Virus record (IMG/VR): IMGVR_UViG_2870490042_000005
From: a virus
Taxonomy: Duplodnaviria > Heunggongvirae > Uroviricota > Caudoviricetes
DNA: 43,696 nucleotides
Direction: 5' to 3' (one strand)
Under the pieces are notes generated by a model. The model made no database searches. It was not told the DNA's origin and saw nothing but the letters and a program-made list of their open reading frames with translations. The position numbers were made by a program, and so were the translations under genes. Shown here piece after piece: positions 1 to 34,264 of this stretch. Positions within the stretch are counted from its first letter, which is position 1; each line of letters begins with the position of its first letter.

Positions 1-20
1 TGCAATTAATAAAATGATTA

Positions 21-48
21 TAGCGGCCTTACATTAGTAAGGCCGCTA
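21..48. terminator. Perfect hairpin (agcggcctta / taaggccgct) in ORF-free leader at left edge of window
   Basis: Inverted repeat read directly from sequence; weak T-run only on minus strand; function not established. Confidence 0.3.
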
Positions 49-252
49 CTCACTATTAAATCCTTTAATTTGCAACAAGAACAGCAGTGTCAGCCCTAGG
101 TTTCGGACTTTGTACCGCTTATCTTGTCTTCAAAATCAGCTCGCATCCTGCACAGTTCAGCGCATTACGTTGTAGATCTGTGTTCTGGTCATTTGTTGAT
201 ACGCGAACATAGCCAATAAGCATGATAGCTCCTCCTGACAAAAACAGGAACG

Positions 253-759
253 ATGCCATTTGCGCGCTATTTCTGCATTTTCATAAACGTTGGTTTGGGC
301 GAAACGATAAATAAAGCCTCCGGAGCTATGCAGAAATCGGCTAATGGAGCTGATATTTCTGATGTATCAGCCTTCCGAAATGCGCTCCAGTTAGGGACCG
401 CCGCAACACGAGATGTTGGAGCAGATAATGCCTCGAAGTTACTGGGTTTAGACAGCTTCAGGTCAATGATGTCAGGGAATGGCTACATCTACATTCCATG
501 CATTGCGACGACAGGAAACCCGGTGAAACTTATGTTGCAGTGGGGAATGGTGGCAACACAAAAGGGAGCTGATGCTGGATATGCCTTACCATTTGCTTTT
601 CCCTATGCAGGCTTATTTGCGACCGGAAACCGTGGAACATCTGGCTACAATGCCGCGATGAATGTGCGTATTGCCAGCAGAACGCATATCAGTATTCAGA
701 ACTGGTCGCCATCCGGAGAGGGCACCGAAGATTGTTGTTTTATCGCGCTGGGGTATTAA
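253..759 (+). CDS. Orphan alternative side-tail-fibre C-terminal segment, inverted relative to stf
   Basis: Shares LQLG-x-AA-x-RDVG motif and C-terminal ...IALGY ending with the stf distal end (…EAIGY); frame closed by stop at 226..228 so no long upstream ORF; first ~17 aa look non-native. Confidence 0.5.
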   Translation: MPFARYFCIFINVGLGETINKASGAMQKSANGADISDVSAFRNALQLGTAATRDVGADNASKLLGLDSFRSMMSGNGYIYIPCIATTGNPVKLMLQWGMVATQKGADAGYALPFAFPYAGLFATGNRGTSGYNAAMNVRIASRTHISIQNWSPSGEGTEDCCFIALGY

Positions 760-761
760 GA

Positions 762-1172
762 ATGAATAAATTTTATAAAGGCTCTTTCTATCCGAAAGCA
801 CTAAAAGAGGTATATATCAGCGCCGGTTCATGGCCTGAAAATGGCGTTGATGTTGATGATGAAACAATGGCAATTTACACAGGCGTAGCGCCACAAGGCA
901 AAACGCTGGGGGCTGATAAAAATGGTAATCCTGCGTGGATTGATATCCCGCCACTCTCCGCTGAACAACAGATTATTCAGGCTGAACAGAAAAGAACGGT
1001 ATTGCGTTCTATGGCTGATAAGGAAATAGCCTGGAGACAGGATGCTTTTGATGCGGAAATCGCGACGGCAGAAGAAACCGCCGCGTTATCTGAATGGAAA
1101 AAATACCGGGTCTTGCTGATGCGCGTTGATACAGCAAAACCCGTATGGCCTGTCAATCCGCAGGATATTTAA
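762..1172 (+). CDS. tfa: Tail fibre assembly protein (Tfa family)
   Basis: C-terminus EIATAEETAALSEWKKYRVLLMRVDT resembles lambda Tfa C-terminal conserved region; ATG at 762 immediately after the fibre-tip stop. Confidence 0.7.
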   Translation: MNKFYKGSFYPKALKEVYISAGSWPENGVDVDDETMAIYTGVAPQGKTLGADKNGNPAWIDIPPLSAEQQIIQAEQKRTVLRSMADKEIAWRQDAFDAEIATAEETAALSEWKKYRVLLMRVDTAKPVWPVNPQDI

Positions 1173-1386
1173 CGGGGGCGTTGTAGGTGGTGACATATTC
1201 AAGCAGTTCTGTTGGATATGTCACCGTTGCTGCATCTCGCTCTACGTTAAATGTATCCGCTCCCCAGATAACACACTCCCTCAAAAATGCCTCCACCTCT
1301 GGCGAGACTTCAACCGCATCATCAGGTCGCTCTTGTTCAGAAACATAAAAACCAACGGTCGTTGGGCTGAAATACATATTCTCCAT
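1153..1386 (-). CDS. Tail fibre assembly protein, truncated N-terminal fragment (77 aa)
   Basis: ATG 5 nt after stf stop (1389..1391); converges on and overlaps the 3' end of the plus-strand tfa; much shorter than typical Tfa (~190 aa). Confidence 0.4.
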   Translation of the reverse strand: MENMYFSPTTVGFYVSEQERPDDAVEVSPEVEAFLRECVIWGADTFNVERDAATVTYPTELLEYVTTYNAPVKYPAD

Positions 1387-1388
1387 AT

Positions 1389-1624
1389 TTAGTATCCTAT
1401 TGCTTCAAAATGCAAAGTCGGAATTTCGCCGAGATTGGGTGTCGTATACGACACAGTGAATCGCGTTCTTGATACGTCAGTGCCAGAATCAGTATCGCGA
1501 TGCGTTGCCAGTGATTTCCCAGCCATTGATGACTGGGTCGAAAAGCTGTAACTCGCTAGTGTTGCCAGCGTTGCTATTTGTGCATTTGGGAATTGTCTGG
1601 GGAAATTAACCCTGTAGTAATGGG
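1389..1624 (-). pseudogene. stf: Distal 3' part of stf, separated from the rest of the gene by IS629
   Basis: Removing IS plus one copy of GGG restores an open frame continuing …GGVLYYT-HYYRVNFPRQ… to stop TAA at 1389..1391, ending …HFEAIGY. Confidence 0.7.
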
Positions 1625-1666
1625 TGAACCGCCCCGGGTTTCCTGGAGAGTGTTTTATCTGTGAAC

Positions 1667-2557
1667 TCAGGCTGCCAGATCATCGTTTCCGATGGAAGCA
1701 TAATAAGCTTTTTCTGCTTCTGCCGGAGGAGTATGGCCCAGCCTTTCCAGCAATCGTCGATTGTTATACCAGTCCACCCACGTGAGTGTGGCCAGTTCCA
1801 CTTCTGCACGGTTTTTCCAGCTCTTACGGTGTATTACCTCCGCTTTGTAAAGACCATTGATGCTCTCCGCCATCGCGTTGTCATACGAGTCGCCTGTACT
1901 TCCTGTTGATGCCAGTAATCCGGCTTCCTTAAGCCGCTGTGTGTAGGCCAGCGATACATACTGAGAACCTTTATCACTGTGATGGACCGTGCCGGACGGT
2001 CGACGGGCCCATAACGCCTGCTCCAGTGCATCCAGCACGAATGTCGTTTCCATGGACGATGAGACCCGCCACCCCACGATGTATCCGGCAAACACATCAA
2101 TGATGAACGCCACATAGACGAAGCCCCGCCATGTGCTGACGTAAGTAAAATCAGCCACCCACAGCTGGTCAGGTCGTTCTGCCACGAACTGACGGTTTAC
2201 GCGGTCGCCTGCGGCAACGGCTTTCCGGCTGATGGTCGTACGGACCTTTTTACCCCGGAGAACACCGGCAAGTCCCATAACCGCCATGAGACGTGCCACA
2301 GTGCATCTGGCCACTCTGATACCTTCCCGTAACAACTGACGCCAGACTTTACGCACACCGTATACCTTGTGATTTTCATCGTATACGCGCTGTATCTCTT
2401 TCTTCAGCCAGTCATCGCGCTGCGCACGGGCACTGCGTTTATCCGGATGATGTCGCTGTTGCTGACAGTGGTAATACGTTGACGGGGCAATATGCAGTTC
2501 GCTGCATAGCGGTCCGACCCCGTACTGCTCACGCAGCTTATCCAGCAGTGGCATCAT
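1667..2557 (-). CDS. IS3-family transposase OrfB (DDE integrase domain)
   Basis: 296-aa ORF with IS3-family OrfB-like sequence (…WVADFTYV…HSDKGSQY…); overlaps orfA end as expected for -1 frameshift fusion. Confidence 0.9.
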
Positions 2558-2880
2558 TTTTTCCAGAGGCGGTCGAACTCCGCCTTCGCAAAATAAGCGG
2601 AAGCCTGGCGAAGGATATCGTTACTGCGGCGCAGTTCACGATTTTCACGTTCCAGCTCTTTCAGACGCTGACGTTCAGCGGTGGTGAGCCCTCCATCACC
2701 GCCCCCGGTATCCCGCTCATGCTGGCGAACCCAGACACGCAGAGTCTCCGGCGTACAGCCAATCTTTGGAGCAATGGAACAAATTGTCGCCCATTGTGAG
2801 TCATATTCGCTCTGACTTTCCAGAACCATACGGACTGCCCGTTGACGGACTTCGGGGGAAAAACGAGTATTTTTAGTCAT
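2554..2880 (-). CDS. IS3-family transposase OrfA (HTH)
   Basis: 108-aa [22 protein letters not shown]… matching IS629/IS1203-type OrfA from memory. Confidence 0.9.
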
Positions 2881-2934
2881 CCTGTTTACCTCTTTCTCAG
2901 GAAGTTTAGTCTCCAGGATTCCCGGGGCGGTTCA

Positions 2935-5695
2935 GGGTGTAGTACAGCACTCCACCAAGAGTAATTGCGTTGAAATTACCAACAGGCGTCAGTGTCACAG
3001 TACCAACCTGTCGAATCATACCATTTGGGAGAATATCCCAGGCAGTTTGTCCGTTTCGCGACATACCAAATGCGGACATGTCCGGGAGTTGATTATTACC
3101 GGTTCCGACATCCCGTTTTGCCGCTTCTCCCAATTGAAGGTATGCGAGAAGACCAGCTACATCCTTTCCACTCAAATTAGTCAGCGTATTGTCCAGCGGT
3201 TGTTTGCCCGCCAGTGCGCTCTGTACTTCGCTTTTGCTGTAGGCATCCAGATCTTTAGGCGTAAGCGTAATATCCTTCGTGCCGTCAAACGGAACGCCGT
3301 TGATATTCCGTGCAGTCTGTAGTTTTGTGGCAGTTGCAGCATTACCAGTGGTGTTCTGATTACCCGTAGTGTTTACACCTGGAAGGTTAATATTTGCAGA
3401 ACCGTCGAAAACAACTCCACCGATAGATCTTGCCGTCTGCAATTTCGTGGCTGTACTTGCATTACCATTCAATGAACCAGTTAATCCACCTGTAACAGAC
3501 AACGGACCTGAAACTGTTCCTCCGGTTGTTGGCAGTGCTCCAATATCTAACGGCGTCGGTTTCTGATGTGTGCTATACATCGTATAAACAACACCATAGG
3601 TAACGCTGGAAGGCTTACTCGCTGAATATGTTGGCGAGGTATAAACAGAAACTGACGCATTTGCAGTACAATCCCAATGGATATTTACACTCGTCGCATA
3701 ATTGCCAATCTCAACGTAAATATCATATGTATCGCCGGATGTGTTGATCCAGGCGAAATTCGTTAATCCGACGGCTGTACGCTTCCACAAAGCCCCGGTA
3801 ATTCCTTTGGGGTTTCCATTGCCTGCTCGTAGAACCAGTTCTGAAATGCCTGCCTGATGTGGGGAACCGACGTTGTAACCAGCGCCACCAATCAATGCGA
3901 TGTAAACGATGGAACTCGCCTGTGGCATGGTTACCGTTGCTAATTTGAACCAACCAGCACCACCGCTGAATGACATTGTTGTTGAGTTAAGCGTACCAAT
4001 ATCTTTCGGCGTCAGTGTTATATCCGCTGAAAGCGCCTTACCATTCACCTTACGGGCAGAAGGTACCCGACCATTCGCATTATCATTAGCTGCTTTCACT
4101 GCTTTCGGTGTCGCGGCAAGCGTTTCAGATGCGCTGTTGGTTGCACTACTGAGCTGGACAATTCCTTTTTGTGCTGTCGTAGCGTCCTGTGCGGTGTATT
4201 TCCCGTTAGCCAGGTCATACGCGGCCTTAACGGCTTTTGGCGTTGCCGCCTGTGACTCGGAAGTGCTGTTGGTCGCACTGCTGAGCTGTACTACCCCCTT
4301 TTTCGTCGTGCTCGCATCCTCAAGCGCCACAGCGGATGCAATATCCTCTGCCCGTTTTGCTGCTGTCTCGGCGCGCGTTGCCGCGGATTCCGCCGTACTT
4401 TTGCTCTGAGCTGCCGCCGTCGCACTGCCAGCTGCCTCTGTCGCCTTCGTGGATGCCGTCGTGGCGCTGCCCTTCGCTGCTGACGCTTGTCTGGTCGCCT
4501 CATCTTTTGAAGCAGACGCCGATGATGCCGATGACGCCGCCGAACTGGCGGACGATGCGGCAGCCGTTTTTGAGGATTCTGCACGGGTTTCCGACGCTTT
4601 CGCGTTCGTTTCGGATGTCTTCGCTGCGGAAGCTGACCTCGCTGCTGCGCTGGCCTGTTCAGTGGCTTCGCCAGCCTTCGTTGTGGCTGTTGAAGCAGAC
4701 GATGCGGCACTTTCTGCCGACTTTCCGGCAGCGGTGGCACTGGCTGAGGCCTGCCCGGCACTTGTTGATGCGGCACTGGCAGATGATGCAGCCGCTGTTT
4801 TTGAGCCTGCCGCAGCTGAGGCACTCTGTCCCGCTGCCGTTTCAGAAGACCTGGCGTTCGTCTCGGACGTTTTTGCCGCCTTCGCGGAATTTCCTGCCGC
4901 CGTTGCCGAGGAAGCGGCACTACTGGCGCTTGATGATGCGTTCGTTTCTGATGATTTCGCTGCCTCTTTTGAGGCCGCCGCATCCCGGGCTGAGGTGGCA
5001 GCTTCTGACGCCTTTGTGGTCGCTGCGGATGCAGAAGTGGCTGCAGATTTTTGTGACGCTGCCGCATTCGTTTCTGACGTTTTCGCCGCACCGGCACTGG
5101 TAGCTGCCGCGCTTTTTGAGGACTCTGCAGCGGCAGCACTTTTTGAGGCTTCAGTGGCCTTTGTTGATGCCGTTCCTGCGCTGGAAGACGCTGACTGAGC
5201 CGACGTCGCGGCCTGCCCGGCTGATGTGCTGGCTGCGCGTGCTGAGCCTGCAGCATCAGTCGCATGGGTTGCCGCCTCACGGGCTGATGTGCTGGCATCA
5301 CTGGCTGACTTCTTCGCGGCTGCCGTGTTCTGTGCCACCACGGACGCGTTACGCGCCACCTCTTCCACCATCAGCTCAAAACGGCGCAGTGCCTCCGGAC
5401 GGGCATCATCCTCCGTCATGGCACCGAGAAAATCATTCAGCGTACCGGGTCGGGAATCTTCATACACGGTGATGGTCCCGGCATGTGACGGCGGGAATCC
5501 TTCCACCAACAGAATAACGCTGTACTGACCGTACTCAACGTCCATGCTGTAACGCCCGGCTTCATCCGGATTTTCAGATGCCAGCGTGTTCACCACCACC
5601 GTGGTACTGTTACGTTTTGCTTTCAGCTGGATTGTGCAGTTCTGTACCGGTTTTCCTGTGCCGTCTTTCAGTACACCTGAAATTTTTACTGCCAT
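2935..5695 (-). pseudogene. stf: Side tail fibre protein Stf, proximal part, interrupted at 3' end by IS629
   Basis: Starts MAVKISGVLKDGTGKPVQNCTIQLKA (ATG at 5695; ORF track start is an upstream GTG); long Ala/Ser-rich repeat region; ORF runs into the IS end giving an artificial C-terminus …LNRPGNPGD. Confidence 0.85.
4050..4310 (-). repeat. Tandem ~117-bp (39-aa) repeat inside stf
   Basis: Protein repeats KGVVQLSSATNSTSESQAATPKAVKAAYDLANG / KGIVQLSSATNSASETLAATPKAVKAANDNANG; coordinates approximate. Confidence 0.5.
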
Positions 5696-5703
5696 ATTCA
5701 CCC

Positions 5704-5733
5704 CACAAAAAAGCCCGCCTGAAACGGCGGGCT
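5704..5733 (-). terminator. Rho-independent terminator between lom and stf
   Basis: Stem agcccgcc/ggcgggct with run of six T on the minus strand. Confidence 0.6.
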
Positions 5734-5759
5734 GTCATAACACTGTGTTACCTGGCTAA

Positions 5760-6359
5760 TCAGAATTTATAACCGACACCCACGATGAAACCGTCAGTGC
5801 GCCAGTCGCCACTGCCGGAACCTTCATAAGCGACATCAATGGCCACGGACTCGGTCGGGTTAAACTGCACGCCAGCCCCCCACGCCAGAGACGTGTTGCT
5901 GTGGCGACCGTCATCACTTCCGGTCAGCACATCGTGCGTTTTCCCCTTATTGTCAGTTACGCGGATATAATCCCCGGAGAAAGTCGACACACGGCTGTAA
6001 GCTACACCCGCCATCGCATACGCGCTGAACCATTCATTCACGCGCACAGACGGCCCCGCCATTACGCTGAACCAGCGGTTACGAACGGAATCTTCATGCC
6101 AGCGGGTATCGCTGTAACGGGTCAGCTGGCGATTCTTGTCTCCTGCATAGCTGAATGACGTCACCAGCCCCAGTGTGTCCGTAAACTCATAACGGTATTT
6201 CACGTTAATCCCGTTCAGATCATCACTGCCGGGGACGTTCGTCGAGGCATGAAGATACCCCGCGCTCAGCGTGGACTGATGTTCAGACGCCCATGCAGGC
6301 GCACCGGATACGGCCAGACAAATGGCTGCGGACAAAATTGCTGCACAAACTTTACGCAT
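5760..6359 (-). CDS. lom: Outer membrane protein Lom (Ail/PagC/Lom family)
   Basis: 199 aa with signal peptide; matches lambda Lom from memory; ends …VGVGYKF. Confidence 0.9.
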   Translation of the reverse strand: MRKVCAAILSAAICLAVSGAPAWASEHQSTLSAGYLHASTNVPGSDDLNGINVKYRYEFTDTLGLVTSFSYAGDKNRQLTRYSDTRWHEDSVRNRWFSVMAGPSVRVNEWFSAYAMAGVAYSRVSTFSGDYIRVTDNKGKTHDVLTGSDDGRHSNTSLAWGAGVQFNPTESVAIDVAYEGSGSGDWRTDGFIVGVGYKF

Positions 6360-6381
6360 AATTACCTCTCGCTTTTCTGCA

Positions 6382-6407
6382 ATAAAAAAGGCGTCATTCC
6401 TGACGCC
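6382..6407 (-). terminator. Rho-independent terminator downstream of J
   Basis: Stem ggcgtca/tgacgcc followed by T-run on minus strand. Confidence 0.5.
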
Positions 6408-6429: not shown

Positions 6430-9400
6430 TCAACGAATACTGATGCCGGAAGCGGCTTTTTTGGTCACAATCACCGTACAGTCGGTGATATTGCCTGCCC
6501 CCTGATTGCCTTTCTGGAAAATCTTAAACTCCAGAGTGACGCTTCCCCTGCCACTCGGCATATCAATAACTGCACTGTAACTACCGGGAATGGCCCCTTT
6601 AGTTTCTCTGGATGCGATTAATACGCCGTTTTTGCGAACTTCAAAACCATAACCCGTGTATCTTGTGCCTCCTGGGTTATTTCCGCTCCCCGGATCGTCA
6701 TACGCTATACCGTTAAAAATAATGGGCGGAATAATAATCTGGCGGTCAAAGTTATGATCATCGCTGATGGTGACTGTAACCGTACCGTTTGGTGTTTCCG
6801 TGTTACCCCACGTACCGACTTTTTTCGGGAAGGCTTTTGATACAGCTTTAACGAAATCTCCTCTGACCTGGGTCGCCTCCAGCATGCCCTTAATCGTACA
6901 GTTCTGGTTAATCGTGACATTGTTGAGCGTTCCTGAGTTCGCATTCACACTGCCACTGATATCCGCATTTTTCGCCGTCAGTCTCCCGTCTGATGTCAGG
7001 GAAAATGCCGGAGGATTACCGCCGCTGGTAATGGTGGGGGCCGTCAGGCGTTTCAGGAACACTTCATTCATGAATATCTGATCACCCTGACCAACAAACA
7101 TCGGCTTTGTGTTGCCATTCGCAGGATTAATCATCGCAATCCTGTCTGCCGCCAGCAGCACCTGACTCTGCATTCCTGCTGGCGTATTCTCAATACCGGC
7201 ACCGATACCCGCAATATAAAGGCGTCCGTCCTGCATCTGCTGCAGTTTCACGGCCCACATGCTGTTCAGGTTATTATTTGTATCAACCTGAACCTTCTGT
7301 ATCTGCTGGATCGCTGCACTCTGGTCTTCCAGTTTCTTATTGACGGTCTGTGTGATTTCATTGCTGACATCCGTAATGGATGTCCTGATTTCAGCCAGGT
7401 CAGGCGCAAGCTGGCCGTTATCAATCTGCGTCCACAGCTCCTGAGCCAGATGGGTTTTCCCTATCTCGCCTTTGAAAAAATCCAGATAGCCGGATGCGTC
7501 ATCACTCGGCTGACCAACAGCCTCCACGAATGCCGATTTGCCAACGGTGTTCACACTGCGGATATAAAAGTAATAATCATGGCCCGGTTTGATATTGATA
7601 CTGGCGGCTATCCAGTACAGCGCCGTGCCAAGATAGCGTGCTGTGGTTTCAACCTGCCTGATATCCGCAATCCGCTTTTCCGAGAACCAGAACTCAAACT
7701 GTACCGTCGGATCATAAACCGCAAGATGCGGCGTGGCGGTTATCTGAAAATAGCCCGGCGTCAGCTCAATCCGCGACGGCGCTGCCGGTGCGGCAATCCG
7801 GAACGATACCGACGCCGGATCGCCCTGCTGCCCCCACGCATTTACTGCCCGGACTGTCAGCCTGTAGTTCCCCAGCGCCAGTTGTGTGAAGCGGTAAGTG
7901 GTTTCCGTCGTCCGGGCCGTGCTGACCAGCCGCTCACTGCCGTCATCCGCTGCCACGGTCAGGCGAAGCATAAAGCTCACCCCCTTCACCACCTTCGGCG
8001 TGTCCCAGCGCGCCAGCACCTGATATTCCCCGCTGTCTGCGGTGACTTCGGCAGTCAGGTGCTGCACCGCTGGCGGCGTGACACCATTCACCGTGCCACT
8101 CTGTTCGCCGTCAAAGTGCGCCCCGTTATCCACGATGGCCTCTTTTTCCGGCACATGCTGCACGGCGGTGATGGCATACATGCCGTCGTCGTTTTCACGG
8201 ATACTCACACAGCGGAATAGTCGCTGGCGCAGCGTCGGCAGCTTCAGCCCCCATACGCTGTATTCAGCAACACCGTCAGGAACACGGCTCACTTTTACCT
8301 TCACGCCGTCGGTGACGGACTGGACCTCCACGCTGACCGGATTGCCACTTCCGTCAACCAGGCTTATCAGCGTGGTACCGGAGGATGGCAGCGTGATTTC
8401 ACGGTCGAGCGTCAGCGTCCGGGTCTGGCTGTTCACCGCCAGCACGCGCCCGCCGATGCTGATCCCCGCATAGTCATCATCGCAGATTTCAATAACATCA
8501 CCCGGCACATGGCGAAGCCCTTCGGCACCCACGCTGAAATCCACGGTCTGCGTTTCCAGCAGTTCTGTTTTAATCAGCCACAGCCCGGCGCGGTGTGCCT
8601 GCCCCCGGCTGGTACAGCCAAAGGCATCCATCTTCGTGACATTACGACCGTAACGGGCAATGGCCTGCGTATCTTCAACAAGCTCTGTTGCCGTCTCCCA
8701 GCCGTTGTCCGGGTCAATCCAGTTCACCTCAACGGCATTATGGCGGTCCTTCAGGGCGCTGAAGCTGTAGCGGAACGGCGCGCCATCATCCGGCATCACC
8801 ACATTACTGCGGTTATAGGTCCACACCTTATCCGACGGTCGGTCCTGCACGAACGTCAGCGTCTGCCCGTTCCATACCGGCATACAGCGCATCGCCGAGC
8901 AGAAATCACTGAGCACATCCCACGCCTTGCGCTGTGTGGTCAGGTACGCATTACAGGTGATGCGCGGCTCCGTGCTGCCAAAGCCGTCCGGCACTGACTG
9001 GTCGCAGTACTGGCCGATGACATACAGCGCCCATTTGTCCACATCCGCCGCACCAAGACGTTTTCCCATGCCGTAGCGCGGGTGGGTCAGCATATCCCAC
9101 AGACACCAGGCCATGTTGTTGCTGTATGCCGGTTTTAACGTTCCGTCCCAGATACCGCTGTATTGCCGCGTCTGCGGGTTATAGTTCGACGGCACCTGCA
9201 GAATGCGCCCGCGAAGATGATAATTACGACTCACCTGCTGGCTGCCGAACTGCTCCGAGTCCACCTGTACGCCGACCAGTGCCGTGTTCGGGTAGCACTG
9301 TTTCACATCGATGATTTCGGTGTATGACGACCAGAGCGTTTTGTTCTGCAGCTGGTCTGTGGTGCTGTCCGGCGTCATCCTGCGCATCCGGATGTTGAAC

Positions 9401-9927
9401 GGGCGCGGCGGCAGATTATCCACCACTACCGAGGCCAGATACTGCGAGGTGGTTTTGCCCTTAATGGTGATGTCTTTTTCCGTCACCCAGCCACCGTTAC
9501 GTTGTATCTGAACCAGCAGGCGAACTTCCGACGGATTCCTGTCCCCCTTTGAGGTGGTTTCCACCAGTGCCTGCACACCGAAGGTAAAGCGCAGACGGTC
9601 AATGTTTGCCGACGTGATGGTCCGGGTGATCGGCGTGTCATATTTCACTTCCGTACCCAGTACCGTCTCGGAACCTGATGATTCAAATCCCTCCGGCGGT
9701 GTCTGTTCCTGCTCACCTGCCCGGAACACCACCGTGACACCGGAGATATTGGTATTCCCCTCACTGTCCAGCACCGGTGTACTGTTCAGCAGCACGCTTT
9801 TTAATCCATCCACCGGACCTTCAACCGGCCCTTCGCTGATGGCATCGATCACACTCAGCAGCTGCGTGGACTTCAGGTTGTCCTTCGCTTCGCGCGGGGT
9901 ATGCCCCTTACTGCCGCCTTTACCCAT
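6430..9927 (-). CDS. J: Tail tip host-specificity protein J
   Basis: 1165 aa; N-terminus [24 protein letters not shown] and most of the body match lambda J; C-terminal ~150 aa appear divergent. Confidence 0.9.
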
Positions 9928-28477: not shown

Positions 28478-29227
28478 ATGCTCATTCCAACATCTCTATC
28501 AAAACAACCAGTAATCGAAGCTGCTTTCGAAATGCGTTTTTCTAAAGAAACACAAATATCGGAAATAGTTCCAGGGTTTCTTTTTCACGCTCTAGGTTGT
28601 ACAAAACCAGTAATTAGTTTACCACCCAGTCAAATACCTAAAAATGTTCGTGAGGGAGATGAACAATTACATTACGCAGTTGTCAGTCGCCTCGAAATCG
28701 AAGGGTACTATATTGGACTAAGTGACCATGGTGTTGTTGTATCCACCAGCACCAAATATCAAGGGTGGAGTCATTTTAGAGAAAAAATCATTCATGTATT
28801 AAATGAGCTTAACAAATTAAATTTAAATGACAACATCATCCGCTACTCATTAAAGTATGTAGATTTTTTCCCAAAAGAAGACGATTCTAATTTATTTGAT
28901 AAGCTAAACGTCAGCTTAAATATGGCTGGCGAGTCTATGTCTAATTATCCGATCAATATCAGAATCGATAAAAATGAAGGCGCATTTCTAAATATAATTC
29001 AAATATTATCTCATGCTTTAGTCATGTCAGATAATGGAGAATTTAATAAAAAAGGACTAATCCTAGACATAGACAGCATTAGGCAAATCACTAATACTGA
29101 TGAAATAGATAAGTTTAAAAACGAACCAAAAAAAATTCTTGATGATCTTCACTCCTGTAATAAATTAGCTTTCTTTAGTTGCCTTAAAGAGTCAACAATT
29201 CAAGAACTAGAACCATCCTACAAATAG
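28478..29227 (+). CDS. Cassette ORF-A, hypothetical protein (249 aa)
   Basis: Long ORF in AT-rich DNA on strand opposite to late operon; no recognised catalytic motif; N-terminus KQPVIEAAFEMRF. Confidence 0.6.
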   Translation: MLIPTSLSKQPVIEAAFEMRFSKETQISEIVPGFLFHALGCTKPVISLPPSQIPKNVREGDEQLHYAVVSRLEIEGYYIGLSDHGVVVSTSTKYQGWSHFREKIIHVLNELNKLNLNDNIIRYSLKYVDFFPKEDDSNLFDKLNVSLNMAGESMSNYPINIRIDKNEGAFLNIIQILSHALVMSDNGEFNKKGLILDIDSIRQITNTDEIDKFKNEPKKILDDLHSCNKLAFFSCLKESTIQELEPSYK

Positions 29228-29242
29228 AAATGGTGGTATGAT

Positions 29243-29587
29243 ATGTATCCGTCTCATCATGTTTATCGAGCTCAACTTCAAGTATTAACTTTGGTTTTAT
29301 ATGGTCTGCATATAACTGCATTAACAGACATTGCCCAAAATCAACAGCATGGTCCTCAACAAAGTTTAATCGTCAAAAATCACGCTTTGGAGTATAAGTC
29401 TTCAACTACCGATTCAGTTCATTCCATCACACAAACATATAAAGCAGGGAGCACAATCTCAGTTGATCAAAGACTTGCAGTCTCGATGACAAACTTTTAT
29501 GAAAAATTATCGACAAACCAGGTGTCTTTAGGCAGTGAAATAAATAAAGTCGTTCATGCTTCACTGTGGGATTTATACTTGGATTAA
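29243..29587 (+). CDS. Cassette ORF-B, hypothetical protein (114 aa)
   Basis: ATG preceded by ggtggt RBS-like motif; same frame as ORF-A, separated by TAG plus 5 codons. Confidence 0.5.
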   Translation: MYPSHHVYRAQLQVLTLVLYGLHITALTDIAQNQQHGPQQSLIVKNHALEYKSSTTDSVHSITQTYKAGSTISVDQRLAVSMTNFYEKLSTNQVSLGSEINKVVHASLWDLYLD

Positions 29588-30205
29588 GTGATGAGTAATA
29601 ACATTTTTGATATCGAGAAATTCAAAGATCAAATTCCATATTATTTAACAGCTCATCAAAAAGAAGGGCTAATAAATGCACTTAGAGATTTCCCTGAAAA
29701 CACTAACTACTACCTTAGCAATTATCATGATGATCTGAAAAATGCTGCACTTCAGGGAGATATATTTAAGGAGCTTACAGTATATTCAATTAAAGGGACT
29801 AAAAAAACACGAGGCATTATATTAAGCAACAGTTGCGATATAGATACAAGTAATAATCGTGATGTGCCAATGCGTGCAGTCTTTGCTCCGTTAGTAAGTT
29901 TATCTAAGTTCGAAGCTATTCTTCTCTCCAACGGAGTTTCTAAGACTTCAATAGATAGCAAAATTGATGCTATAAGGAAGCAGTTAATTACTAATATTTT
30001 TTATCTTCCTGAATCAGACAACTTAGAAGAATGCATCGTTTTTCTTGATGATGTATACCAATTACCAACGGAAGAATTACAAAAACTCTTGAATGATAAA
30101 TGCAAAGCCATAACTTTAAGTCAAGTTGGTTTCTACATTTTACTATTCAAAATATCTATTCACTTTTGTAGATTCCATGAAAACATACAACGATTCGATC
30201 ATTAA
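29588..30205 (+). CDS. Cassette ORF-C, hypothetical protein (205 aa)
   Basis: GTG-ATG immediately after ORF-B TAA stop, same frame; terminator follows. Confidence 0.55.
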   Translation: MMSNNIFDIEKFKDQIPYYLTAHQKEGLINALRDFPENTNYYLSNYHDDLKNAALQGDIFKELTVYSIKGTKKTRGIILSNSCDIDTSNNRDVPMRAVFAPLVSLSKFEAILLSNGVSKTSIDSKIDAIRKQLITNIFYLPESDNLEECIVFLDDVYQLPTEELQKLLNDKCKAITLSQVGFYILLFKISIHFCRFHENIQRFDH

Positions 30206-30232
30206 GGCGGTACTACCGCCTTTTATTATTTT
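30204..30232 (+). terminator. Rho-independent terminator ending the plus-strand cassette
   Basis: Stem aaggcggta/taccgcctt followed by ttattatttt. Confidence 0.65.
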
Positions 30233-30590
30233 ACACAAGTATACTTACAACCCCCTCTATAAAACCGATTGCGGTTTGCAACTCCTTCCTAATAGTGCCA
30301 TCAGAGCACCTTCTCCTTTTGGCAATAGTGCGTAATGAGATACCAATAACAAAGTGGGCTATGATGAGCTCATATTCCTCTGGTTTATACTTTCTCAACC
30401 GAGCCACACAACTGTCTATCATAATGCCTTCGTCATCATCACACTGAATCCGTGACTTTTTGCCATGAGGTAAAAGCCCCTTGAAGCCTGCTGCTACCGG
30501 CTGCCAGTCCACACCACTGTTGTCTGCTGCAGCCCATGCTCCCCAGCGGTCCAATACTTCATACATATCACGCATCAACTTACCCCACAA
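30231..30590 (-). CDS. Q: Late gene antiterminator Q (Phage_antitermQ type, not lambda Q)
   Basis: …MRDMYEVLDRWGAWAAADNSGVDWQ…GFKGLL… matches the antitermination Q family from memory; true start may be ATG at 30575. Confidence 0.75.
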   Translation of the reverse strand: MWGKLMRDMYEVLDRWGAWAAADNSGVDWQPVAAGFKGLLPHGKKSRIQCDDDEGIMIDSCVARLRKYKPEEYELIIAHFVIGISLRTIAKRRRCSDGTIRKELQTAIGFIEGVVSILV

Positions 30591-31590: not shown

Positions 31591-32388
31591 TCAATGAACG
31601 GTATCGAGCAGCTTTAACAGCTCAGGGAATCGGGATTCGAAGAAATGCGGCTGCGTCTCGCGCGGATTTGCAGGACTGGTGATGTTCTTGCCGAACATGC
31701 AGCCTTTCGCTGGCAGCGACCAGAATTTTTTGATGTTGTTAATCGCGGTACGGCTGTATCGTTCGCGCTGCTCGACGATCCCCAGCTTCACCATCTGGTG
31801 ATATGCCTGATTAGCCGTAAGGCGGATACCATACTGTTTCAGCAGTGCACTCAGCGACAGCGTGGGGCGACTTGAGCCATCAGGCGCGTCAGCAGGAGCA
31901 TCAATGGCATAGCGCGGTGCCAGATTCGGTAAGCCAACAGCCTCCTGAAGCTTCTGACAGGCTCCAAGCACTGATGAGTTAGACAGGTTTAATTCCCTGC
32001 GCATAAAGTCCAGCAGGATCACGCCAGCCTGCATCTTGTCAGCAGCCTGCCCGGATATTTTTTCCGGTGTGCTGGTTACCATATCGAAAGTACGGATCAC
32101 CTTCAGATGGAATGACGGGCTGATCCACATTGCATAGGCATACACCAGTTCTTTGCAGACATACGTCCCCTGGTTATTTCCGCCACGAATAACGTTAACT
32201 GGCTCTATATTGACCGAGTTGCAAATCTGCAACTCGCTTATTAAACGTTCAGTTTGCTCATTGCGGAGCCAGAATGCAGGCTTATGCTTATCCAGAGAAC
32301 CGGCAGCCCTGTGCAGATCGTTCAGGCTGTAACGCCCATAAGCATCACGACGAACTTCAATACCATCAATGACCATCAGATTATTCAT
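31591..32388 (-). CDS. KilA-N domain protein (antirepressor-like)
   Basis: N-terminal …MVIDGIEVRRDAYGRYSLNDLHRAAG… is KilA-N-like; start taken at ATG 32388 with GGAGA upstream. Confidence 0.65.
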   Translation of the reverse strand: MNNLMVIDGIEVRRDAYGRYSLNDLHRAAGSLDKHKPAFWLRNEQTERLISELQICNSVNIEPVNVIRGGNNQGTYVCKELVYAYAMWISPSFHLKVIRTFDMVTSTPEKISGQAADKMQAGVILLDFMRRELNLSNSSVLGACQKLQEAVGLPNLAPRYAIDAPADAPDGSSRPTLSLSALLKQYGIRLTANQAYHQMVKLGIVEQRERYSRTAINNIKKFWSLPAKGCMFGKNITSPANPRETQPHFFESRFPELLKLLDTVH

Positions 32389-32407
32389 ATTTCGTTTCTC
32401 CTCTTGA

Positions 32408-32797
32408 TCAGGCGGCTGCACCCGCCGTTTTCTCGTACTTACTGATAGTGATCTCGACCTTCCCTTCCGGGATAACCGGTCCCCACTCCACCAGCATTCT
32501 TTTCACCTGGCTGTCGTCTTCCCACACACCCGCGTGGGTCAGGGCGTCAAACAGCGCCTTGTTATAGTTGTCCAGATCGCGGATCCGGTTATCCGGAGGA
32601 AACAACACGATCTCCACTGAAGCAGGTGCCGACGTTGGTTTTGGCAGACGACGTAACTGCTCAACTATTGCTGCACACGCCGCGCTCTGGAATTTGCGCC
32701 CCGCCGCGCTTATCAGGCTCTTACCTGCAAACGCCCCTTTGTTGGGGTGTCGCCAGTACGTGTTCACGCTGGGCGGGAAAGGCAGGATCAGCTTCAT
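32408..32797 (-). CDS. rusA: Holliday junction resolvase RusA
   Basis: 129 aa, MKLILPFPPSVNTYWRH…DLDNYNKALFDALTHAGVWEDDSQV, typical RusA. Confidence 0.85.
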   Translation of the reverse strand: MKLILPFPPSVNTYWRHPNKGAFAGKSLISAAGRKFQSAACAAIVEQLRRLPKPTSAPASVEIVLFPPDNRIRDLDNYNKALFDALTHAGVWEDDSQVKRMLVEWGPVIPEGKVEITISKYEKTAGAAA

Positions 32798-33120
32798 ACT
32801 TTCAGACCCCTCTCATGTAACCAGTGGGCTGCACGCAGCCTGGCGTTTTCCTCACCGGCAAGCAGTGAGCGGATAATCCCGACCGCCTCGCTGTCGTCGT
32901 CCTTGACCGCGGTATGAAGCGTTATCCCCCGGGCCACACCACGCTTTATCGTGATGACGCCTTTTTTCTCCAGTGCGCGAAGATGCTCCACCGCTGCATT
33001 CACCGAACGGTATCCCAGCATGGTTGCCACCTCCTGATTGGTTGGCGGGAAGCCACGTTCTTTCTGATAAGAAATCAGCATATCCAGCACCTGCTGCTGA
33101 CATTGAGTTAACGTCGTCAT
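32794..33120 (-). CDS. LexA DNA-binding-domain-like protein lacking peptidase domain
   Basis: 108 aa; …LTQCQQQVLDMLISYQKERGFPPTNQEVATMLGYRSVNAAVEHLRALEKKGVITIKRGVARGI… parallels the LexA N-terminal winged helix. Confidence 0.6.
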   Translation of the reverse strand: MTTLTQCQQQVLDMLISYQKERGFPPTNQEVATMLGYRSVNAAVEHLRALEKKGVITIKRGVARGITLHTAVKDDDSEAVGIIRSLLAGEENARLRAAHWLHERGLKV

Positions 33121-33770
33121 GCCACCATCTCCCTGACCAGTTTTTCTGCCTGCTGGCGAACCTGCGCCAGAAAGGCCTCACCACATGCCTCAAGTTCATC
33201 GCGCCCGATGTAGCTGATTGCCGGTCCCTTCCAGGTCTTGTCGAAAACAGCAATAGCACCAGCGAAGAAAGCTCCTGTCGGCACCTGCTTCTCATCCTTC
33301 GGGATAAACCAGGCAGGCAGTTCAAAACCGATACGCCCGCGAATAAAAGCAATATGATCTGCATCTTCCGGCCACCACACTTCGCTGGTGGCAGCTTTGA
33401 TCAGGAAAACATTGCGCCCACCTTTATCACGCATGGCACTGGCATGCTTCATGATGTAACGCATGCCTGTGATGTATTGCCCCTCATGCTGACTGGCGCG
33501 GCTGTATGGGGGATTACCAAAGGCAGCACCTTTAAGCTCCGCAAGGCGTTCTGACCAGTCATGCGCCAGCGCGTTGTCTTCCGCCGTGTAATACGCAGCA
33601 CATTTGGCGTTATCACCGTCAGTGAACAGATCCAGAACAAACGGGCCAAACAGGGTGTTAATTCCCCAGAAAATGTTGTCCGGCGTGCGCCACTGATCGC
33701 CCACTTCCTTCAGTTCATGGGCTGGTTTGTTCCGCAGTTCCACCAGCGCCTGGCAATATTTATTACTCAT
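33117..33770 (-). CDS. Phage N6-adenine DNA methyltransferase (Dam type)
   Basis: Contains FGNPPYS motif and phage Dam-like N-terminus; start taken at internal ATG overlapping upstream stop. Confidence 0.75.
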   Translation of the reverse strand: MSNKYCQALVELRNKPAHELKEVGDQWRTPDNIFWGINTLFGPFVLDLFTDGDNAKCAAYYTAEDNALAHDWSERLAELKGAAFGNPPYSRASQHEGQYITGMRYIMKHASAMRDKGGRNVFLIKAATSEVWWPEDADHIAFIRGRIGFELPAWFIPKDEKQVPTGAFFAGAIAVFDKTWKGPAISYIGRDELEACGEAFLAQVRQQAEKLVREMVA

Positions 33771-34264
33771 TAAGCCCCCACGTAATTCCCTGACAGATAC
33801 CACTCATCACCCGGTACAGCGCGCTTGCTGCTTTTCCGTAAACACCGCTCACGACGCGCAAGAAAATTGTTTCGCTCTGGCTGGGAGTGGCTTTCACGGA
33901 ATGCCGCCATCCACACCGTTGCAGCACGACGGTATAAGCCCCTGGACTCCAGTTCTTCCGCCTGGCGGGTCAGGCACAAAATCACCCGCGGGTCGTTAGT
34001 GCCGACATAGAAATTGCGCACAGGTCTGGTTTCACGAACTGGTTGTGGTTCCGGATCCTGCGCTCTCTCAGTCAGGCGCGGGAAATGTCTGTGTGTATCT
34101 CCTTCACAACGGTGAGCCACACGCCCACTCTGACGTAACTTGCTTGCTGACTGCAGAACGCGCTGCCGTGAGTAACCTGCAAAAGCATCCGCAATGTCTC
34201 CGGAAGTACAGCCCGGATGGGCTTCAATGAATTTCTGAACGTCATTCAAAAGACTCATGATCAC
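33770..34264 (-). CDS. PerC-like domain protein
   Basis: 164 aa; …AEELESRGLYRRAATVWMAAF… resembles the PerC/Pch motif (LE-x-KGLWRRAA-x-W) from memory. Confidence 0.5.
   Translation of the reverse strand: MIMSLLNDVQKFIEAHPGCTSGDIADAFAGYSRQRVLQSASKLRQSGRVAHRCEGDTHRHFPRLTERAQDPEPQPVRETRPVRNFYVGTNDPRVILCLTRQAEELESRGLYRRAATVWMAAFRESHSQPERNNFLARRERCLRKSSKRAVPGDEWYLSGNYVGA

Follow-up and report, generated by a model that had tools for sequence, protein, structure and literature searches.

A prophage-encoded LexA DNA-binding domain with a conserved helical tail and no protease

The DNA analysed here (43,696 nucleotides; IMG/VR virus record IMGVR_UViG_2870490042_000005; hereafter the window, meaning this whole stretch) is a lambdoid prophage at tRNA-Thr (thrW), adjoining proA. 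A 108-amino-acid (aa) open reading frame (ORF) in its early-right operon, which begins with an ATG at position 33120 and runs on the minus strand to 32794, encodes the winged-helix head of the SOS repressor LexA, followed by a hairpin tail and lacking the protease domain. The gene is not new as an object, being already annotated and extremely common. What is new here is that the CTGT-reading residues of LexA are kept, that the tail is under selection, and that relatives in two diverged subfamilies lie in operons headed by SOS boxes. Judged from these sequence comparisons, it is plausible that SOS boxes are bound by the protein and that it connects SOS regulation to the biology of the prophage, and the explanation that we tentatively favour is that it acts as an uncleavable LexA surrogate, which would bind SOS-box-type operators in trans.

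A LexA-type head joined to a selected tail

The first-pass annotation of the window had placed a LexA N-terminal winged-helix domain at 32794-33120. Those coordinates proved exact, and the coding strand is the minus strand; the plus-strand frame of the same interval is riddled with stops. The product matches the Pfam model LexA_DNA_bind (PF01726) over its entire length (positions 1-65 of 65; E 2.9e-19; 69 bits against a cut-off of 23.7) and PHROG 362 over positions 1-106 of 106 (E 1.4e-59). When PDB was searched with phmmer, the best hit was the N-terminal domain of E. coli LexA (1LEA, E 7e-16), with a gapless alignment to LexA residues 2-69 at about 50% identity. An AlphaFold (AF2) model of the product (mean predicted local distance difference test score, pLDDT, 79.6) places helices at residues 6-22, 28-35 and 40-52 and strands at 56-59 and 65-68 of the head, and a Foldseek search with this model returned LexA chains at the top, the first being the LexA-DNA crystal structure 3JSO (root-mean-square deviation 1.6 Å over 68 residues). 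Pfam, the 1LEA alignment and Foldseek thus agree on a LexA domain. The alternative named in the first-pass annotation, an unrelated winged-helix family without LexA-like recognition residues, is contradicted by LexA being the best match in both sequence and fold and by the presence of all four CTGT-reading residues.

Those residues lie in and just before the recognition helix, α3, which is nearly the same in the two proteins (SVNAAVEHLRAL in the ORF product and SPNAAEEHLKAL in LexA) and reads …S39-V-N41-A42-A-V44-E45-H-L-R… in the ORF product. According to a review based on 3JSO, CTGT is recognised mainly through S39, N41, A42 and E45, and mutating these residues alters specificity (PMC11442139). 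All four are present in the ORF product and in 80 of 80 copies of the type found in phage SfV, which favours SOS-box binding, and no subfamily that we examined departs from S39 or N41. The fold and the wing motif RGI are likewise shared with E. coli LexA (1LEA, 3JSO). The ORF product differs from LexA in having Val in place of Glu44 and Asn in place of Arg28, in carrying a 39-aa hairpin after the wing, and in lacking Ser119 and Lys156, a conserved Ala-Gly site and the domain for RecA* binding and dimerisation.

The absence of an S24 peptidase domain, also claimed in the first-pass annotation, is borne out. The protein ends at residue 108, PF00717 gives no match, and TIGR00498, the equivalog model for lexA, aligns over positions 1-91 of 203 only, scoring 70.8 bits against a cut-off of 110.95. 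By TIGR00498, therefore, the product is not a LexA repressor proper: it has the winged helix, and it lacks the S24 domain, the Ala-Gly site and the score. The HMMER alignment does extend far enough to place 'LLAGE' of the ORF product opposite 'VAAGE' of LexA, which contains the scissile Ala84-Gly85 bond. A retained cleavage site was considered and rejected, since relatives have LLAKEE, LLANEE, LLVGEE, LLTRKE or MVERES at this position and the segment is predicted to be helical in the AF2 model. As it has neither the S24 protease nor a cleavage site nor the surface to which RecA* docks, the ORF product cannot be inactivated by DNA damage. Several public phage entries list it under the names 'SOS-response repressor and protease LexA' or 'RecA-mediated autopeptidases', of which the 'protease' and 'autopeptidase' parts are wrong because the protease domain is missing.

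In place of the LexA hinge and S24 domain the protein has an acidic linker and an amphipathic hairpin whose helices, at residues 74-87 and 93-102, are modelled with good confidence (mean pLDDT 87-89 in the residue blocks 81-100). In the Foldseek comparison only residues 1-70 align to LexA, and the tail has no likeness to the S24 fold. The tail is 39 aa long, 40-50% identical between subfamilies, amphipathic, and conserved with a ratio of nonsynonymous to synonymous substitution rates (dN/dS) of about 0.2, all of which favours a working module in the surrogate that we propose. Most likely it is an oligomerisation module, which would presumably dimerise the protein. The motif ΦΦxxΦΦ…A-x3-A-x3-L-x3-G in the tail defines the family, and the ORF product ends in …RGLKV. 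A different solution may exist in proteins of 140-350 aa (P0156, P0160 and others) that carry two tandem LexA_DNA_bind domains and no S24 domain; these may be single-chain pseudo-dimers, an alternative to the LexA dimerisation domain.

An exhaustive search of 1.84 billion representative sequences returned 4,563 matches, among them a set of proteins of 105-135 aa that are 42-52% identical to the ORF product over the full length, tail included. Because these matches span the tail, the combination of LexA head and tail constitutes a family of its own. As defined here, the phage family comprises SfV orf42, mEp390 gp43 and P0125-P0220, proteins of about 105-135 aa encoded in the nin region of temperate phages, and alignments, full-length matches and gene contexts all place the ORF product in it. 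A scan of one-genome-per-species contigs with the single protein found seven loci, mostly true lexA genes or fragments. The identical protein is WP_000210164.1, a 'LexA family transcriptional regulator', and the gene is present in 2,232 of 5,426 complete E. coli genomes (41%), in up to four copies per genome. It is carried by 61 phage records, including SfV (orf42), SfII, SfIV, mEp460, cdtI and many phages encoding Shiga toxin (Stx) 2c. A comparative study of Stx phages mentions it in a catalogue only, as pham 237 with pfam01726 (PMC8136144), and literature searches aimed at this family found no functional study.

Purifying selection marks the ORF as a real gene. For 43 distinct alleles of the SfV type, summed pairwise differences were 1022 nonsynonymous and 6778 synonymous, and in the mEp390-type subfamily (65 distinct alleles) dN/dS is about 0.2 for the head and about 0.2 for the tail. 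This analysis of alleles rules out a non-functional remnant.

SOS boxes around related genes

We counted SOS boxes in viral-contig loci related to this one, about 200 in all. Canonical boxes numbered 77 around SfV-type copies, against about 11 expected, and 49 in the P0137 and P0172 subfamilies, against about 5 expected, counts that are not independent, as loci within a subfamily are related. The position of the boxes is the stronger argument. In 25 of the 34 P0137/P0172 loci the gene is preceded, at 427-508 bp, by a CTGT-N8-ACAG box, and these boxes occur in eight spacer and flank variants, all of which keep CTGT and ACAG; this placement favours a link between the protein and SOS boxes. Within the mEp390-type subfamily, comparison of Glu45 with SOS-box presence gave 5 of 51 against 1 of 29 (p = 0.41).

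Two loci show the arrangement. In L184 the order is a terminator-like hairpin, a promoter that is AT-rich and contains the box, an ORF of 82 aa, the LexA-like gene, an ORF of 67 aa, RusA, DUF968 and Q. In L206, a box on the -10 element is followed by DinI (PF06183, 1e-23), a 101-aa ORF, the LexA-like gene, the 67-aa ORF, DUF968 and, in the Q position, a Q-like ORF without a Pfam match. Also in favour of the link are the visible homology of the L206 dinI promoter to the dinI promoter of Gifsy-2 and the presence of DinI two genes upstream of the LexA-like gene in a Klebsiella phage. LexA repression of the Gifsy dinI operon has been shown experimentally, and the operon encodes an antirepressor that induces Gifsy prophages (PMC3121763). 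The Gifsy dinI-antirepressor-irsA operon and the P0172-type operons share a terminator, a near-identical promoter, an SOS box on the -10, dinI and a small ORF, and both lie between the replication genes and Q. Where the Gifsy operon has irsA as its third gene, the P0172-type relatives have the LexA-like gene instead. We considered whether the LexA-like gene might be irsA itself and rejected this, as IrsA (STM1020) belongs to DUF1367 and does not resemble it.

The small ORFs located immediately 5' of the LexA-like gene in L206 (4589-4894, 101 aa) and L184 (4713-4961, 82 aa) are 54% identical (E 2e-31). Neither has a Pfam match. The small ORF takes the place that the antirepressor has in the Gifsy operon but is not similar to GftA, and it could itself act as an antirepressor or as a partner to the LexA-like product. 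The window contains no dinI, no homologue of this small ORF and no SOS box.

SOS boxes also mark neighbouring genes. In five SfV-type loci a box heads the KilA-N gene straight after RusA, which again favours an SOS connection, whereas KilA-N overlaps RusA in the window and has no box. In L067 (at 6767), as in L050, L069 and L070, a 150-bp intergenic region with an SOS box parts RusA from a different KilA-N allele. This arrangement, present in a minority of SfV-type prophages, suggests a LexA-controlled, antirepressor-like KilA-N protein beside the LexA-like gene.

Three further boxes were noted in these loci. In L206, a Klebsiella-type prophage, a perfect-consensus box, TACTGTATATATATACAGTA, overlaps the promoter of a 109-aa ORF (3838-4206), whose product aligns with E. 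coli UmuD from Gly25, the first residue of UmuD' (pairwise E 1e-7), and has Ala opposite the UmuD nucleophile Ser60 and no Pfam match; it looks like a LexA-controlled, pre-'cleaved' and catalytically dead UmuD'-like protein. In L002 (at 2332) a near-perfect box, TACTGTTTTTACATACAGTA, is internal to the gene for a 230-aa CI-like repressor (1866-2558, minus strand), in its coding part and not in a promoter, and about 25 further loci of the SfV type have a box like it, at a distance of 2.9-5.3 kb 5' of the LexA-like gene. In L010 (at 10640) the box TACTGTAAAAATAAACAGTG overlaps codons 3-9 of a gene, downstream of Q, for a 350-aa DNA methyltransferase with a DPPY motif; this pairing of box and methyltransferase recurs in about 20 other loci, including the P0137-type L185-L187 and L212, in unrelated backgrounds.

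What the protein may bind and do

We propose that the ORF product is a sequence-specific DNA-binding protein descended from LexA, whose winged-helix head has its CTGT-reading residues intact and whose hairpin tail most likely oligomerises in place of the C-terminal domain. It would be produced from the early-right operon under the promoter PR only after cleavage of the CI-type repressor, or on infection, and would act in trans on SOS-box-type operators, occupying their CTGT half-sites during the depletion of host LexA. Candidate targets are the host SOS regulon and the LexA-controlled promoters of other prophages or of colicin plasmids, on which repression would be re-imposed on the phage's terms; in relatives with the gene behind an SOS box, the protein could exert delayed negative feedback on its own operon.

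Published work on LexA bears on such a protein. The C-terminal domain of LexA provides the dimerisation, self-cleavage and RecA* interfaces, and on the operator the N-terminal domains form an extensive mutual interface that is synergistic with DNA binding (PMC3159453). The free N-terminal fragment binds 10-1000-fold more weakly, and its degradation by ClpXP is needed for full SOS derepression (PMC11442139). The LexA head alone is thus already a weak SOS repressor, and such a head, given an oligomerising tail and deprived of the elements for RecA*-stimulated cleavage, would be a damage-proof one. The autocleavage fragment LexA(1-84) still binds operators weakly and represses to a residual degree in vivo (PMC11442139). 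It is in essence the part of LexA that the phage protein represents, with similarity continuing through the LexA hinge to about residue 86. It differs in being transient and destroyed by ClpXP, whereas the phage protein is genetically encoded, selected and equipped with a structured tail. The LexA fragment is said, in work by Neher et al. from 2003, to end in …VAA, unlike the …RGLKV of the ORF product.

Several observations weigh against SOS boxes as the target. A search of the prophage for LexA boxes, which the first-pass annotation had proposed, returned a single CTGT-N8-ACAG site in the whole window, a chance match within the tape-measure gene (0.56 expected). No site in the window lies within three mismatches of the SOS consensus core, CTGT palindromes with spacings of 0-20 in either orientation are not in excess there, and no SOS box is found near the ORF or anywhere in the PR operon, so that, unlike LexA, this prophage has no autoregulatory box and any target must be in trans. 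In relatives, besides the kinship of the counted loci, the upstream boxes attest control of these operons by host LexA, and binding by the phage protein does not follow from them. E45 is replaced in about half of the mEp390-type proteins and in most P0172-type proteins, and the latter form the subfamily most tightly tied to the dinI box. The residue at LexA Glu44, which has been listed as a DNA contact with reference to an older model based on nuclear magnetic resonance (PMC13416735), is non-acidic in every family member. A new dimerisation module may also impose another half-site spacing, and the characterised precedent, gp6 of the Bacillus thuringiensis tectivirus GIL01, has evolved towards another operator, where it works as an activator.

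That precedent points to the most serious rival, which we consider rather unlikely: the LexA-derived head has drifted to an operator of the phage's own, differing in half-site, spacing or both, and serves as a private regulator without effect on host SOS boxes, activating or repressing a promoter of the phage, such as one for Q, for late genes or for a moron. GIL01 gp6, a truncated LexA homologue, uses Lys38 and recognises GaCACAnnTGTGaC in place of the host LexA box; it switches on the late promoter (PMC6182141). The unLexA-like residue at position 44 family-wide, the variation of Glu45 among subfamilies and the lack of an SOS box in this prophage are what a private regulator would lead one to expect, and a tail in place of the LexA dimerisation scaffold means that half-site geometry may differ. 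Yet no gp6-type candidate operator emerged from the palindrome and inverted-repeat scans of the prophage: its intergenic regions hold no alternative conserved palindrome, other inverted repeats in seven of these regions were not convincing, and CTGT-type repeats are not in excess at other spacings. Late genes here are served by the Q antiterminator (PF06530), leaving an extra activator unneeded, and a gene that moves among mosaic phages with different immunity and late regions fits better with a trans target common to the hosts. Moreover, all four direct-readout residues are kept. The ORF product therefore joins the phage-encoded truncated LexA homologues and, unlike the characterised example, comes from lambdoid phages of Enterobacteria and has host-type readout residues and a conserved tail.

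It is improbable, in our judgement, that the protein is instead a DNA-targeting accessory of the recombination and nuclease module (RusA, DUF968/HNH, NinG), directing or restraining these enzymes rather than transcription. RusA and/or DUF968 are close to the gene at all evolutionary distances examined, in 84 and 78 of 90 close loci, respectively, in mEp390, Klebsiella and Edwardsiella phages, and in L184 and L206. All of these genes, however, are usual cargo of the nin region, which separates the replication genes from Q, so that their adjacency may be mere gene order, and a LexA-type recognition helix with conserved base-reading residues indicates sequence-specific operator binding. We know of no precedent for a LexA-type accessory of a recombination module.

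More improbable still is interference at the protein level, in which the product would pair with host LexA in mixed dimers, or with RecA*, and alter cleavage or operator occupancy without repressing on its own. DinI, a modulator of the RecA filament, does co-occur in relatives, and the interface between N-terminal domains on the operator (PMC3159453) makes a mixed pair of LexA and phage protein on an SOS box conceivable. Against it, the interface of the LexA dimer in solution and the RecA* contact both lie in the C-terminal domain that is absent here, the tail is dissimilar to the S24 fold, with Foldseek aligning residues 1-70 alone, and family members do not keep the 'AG' opposite LexA Ala84-Gly85. 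Heterodimerisation with LexA, raised in the first-pass annotation, is not supported in its usual form, since the C-terminal domain by which LexA dimerises and contacts RecA* (PMC3159453) is absent and the tail is unrelated to it, and contacts of the N-terminal domains on DNA are the only route left by which pairing with LexA is conceivable. Whatever probability remains belongs to readings other than the surrogate and these three rivals.

If the protein is indeed an SOS-box-binding surrogate, a broader role can be imagined, which we think unlikely: an 'SOS reset' and weapon between prophages, in which the surrogate takes SOS boxes after host LexA is destroyed and silences SOS functions, the LexA-controlled antirepressor operons of rivals and colicin genes, and in relatives acts as delayed feedback on the dinI-antirepressor induction operon. 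Its carriers would be the lambdoid prophages of about 40% of E. coli genomes. Prophage induction, release of Shiga toxin, mutagenesis and tolerance of antibiotics are all under the control of the SOS response, and the gene is found in Stx2c, cdt and Shigella serotype-converting phages. If the protein really is a LexA mimic that withstands DNA damage, polylysogens would hold a factor that changes the duration and strength of SOS gene expression, and of the LexA-gated switches of other prophages, after damage, which would bear on antibiotic-driven induction of toxin phages and on prophage competition.

Gene neighbourhood and other features of the prophage

The ORF lies within the early-right operon, as the first-pass annotation had it, according to both gene order and a promoter scan. 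On the minus strand the genes are ordered cro (P22_Cro), cII-like, DUF4222, a replication-initiator-like helix-turn-helix (HTH) protein, PerC/YfdN, Dam, the ORF, RusA, KilA-N, DUF968/HNH and Q (PF06530, at 30231-30575). The only good promoter-like site upstream on this strand is just before cro (Table 1) and is presumed, from its sequence and position, to work as PR for the operon from cro to Q. The ORF would accordingly be a delayed-early nin-region gene, whose expression is expected upon induction or infection but not during lysogeny. ATGA overlaps at both junctions agree with the proposed translational coupling to Dam and RusA.

Table 1. Features of the LexA-like gene and its surroundings, in window coordinates
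Feature	Position	Strand	Basis
Complete LexA-domain-only ORF, 108 aa	32794..33120	-	ORF list, PF01726, PHROG 362, PGAP annotation of identical stretch
Residues 1-69, LexA-type winged helix-turn-helix	32914..33120	-	1LEA alignment, AF2, Foldseek 3JSO
Recognition helix α3, residues 40-52, with S39 just before	32965..33003	-	Alignments, subfamily residue table, published contacts
Residues 70-108, acidic linker then amphipathic helical hairpin	32797..32913	-	AF2, conservation, dN/dS, amphipathicity
ORF stop codon	32794-32796	-	
ATGA overlap, ORF stop and RusA start	32794..32797	-	Read from sequence, ORF list
ATGA overlap, Dam stop TGA and ORF ATG	33117..33120	-	Read from sequence
GGAG Shine-Dalgarno, 8 nt 5' of ORF ATG	33129-33132	-	Read from sequence
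RusA Holliday-junction resolvase, downstream	32408..32797	-	PF05866 6e-15
Dam-family phage N6-adenine methyltransferase, upstream	33117..33803	-	PF05869 2.6e-45, TIGR01712 5e-76; PGAP start 33770
Best promoter-like site, TTGACC-17-TAGCAT, just 5' of cro, presumed PR	36363..36391	-	Consensus scan, gene order

Among the 90 related loci the neighbours, besides RusA and DUF968, are KilA-N (81), PerC (77) and Dam (51). With a place in only 51 of 90 loci, Dam was rejected as a fixed partner of the gene and is an optional cassette. In distant phages (mEp390 and phages of Klebsiella, Edwardsiella and Proteus) the gene always has the replication genes on one side and Q on the other, with RusA and/or DUF968 usually close by. 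Public phage records often mislabel the Dam-family methyltransferase as 'phosphoadenosine phosphosulfate reductase'.

The repressor of this prophage (36434-37060) is of the classical CI type, with HTH_3 and S24 domains. CI proteins of the lambda type, this one included, resemble the ORF product in being named 'LexA family protein' by PGAP and in belonging to SOS-linked phage regulation. They differ in combining an XRE-type five-helix HTH with a cleavable S24 domain, whereas the ORF product has a LexA-type winged helix. The idea that the ORF is a paralogue of this repressor was discarded, as the two have no domain in common.

Between the Q antiterminator and the holin, the position at which stx is carried in Stx phages, three plus-strand genes (28478-30205; products of 249, 114 and 204 aa) are wedged. 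PGAP names the first a 'TIGR04255 family protein', and none of the three has a Pfam or PADLOC match. They may form a moron or defence cassette, which late transcription would read in antisense.

In a 2.3-kb query, positions 32000-34300 of the window are 100% identical to E. coli strain 190. The window was also compared with locus L001. Tail-tip protein J is called at 6430-9927 in the window and at 6427-9906 in L001, the ORF annotated at 893-1666 in L001 does not translate at the same coordinates in the window, and the tail-fibre end (window 1-6400) appears to be a different mosaic variant.

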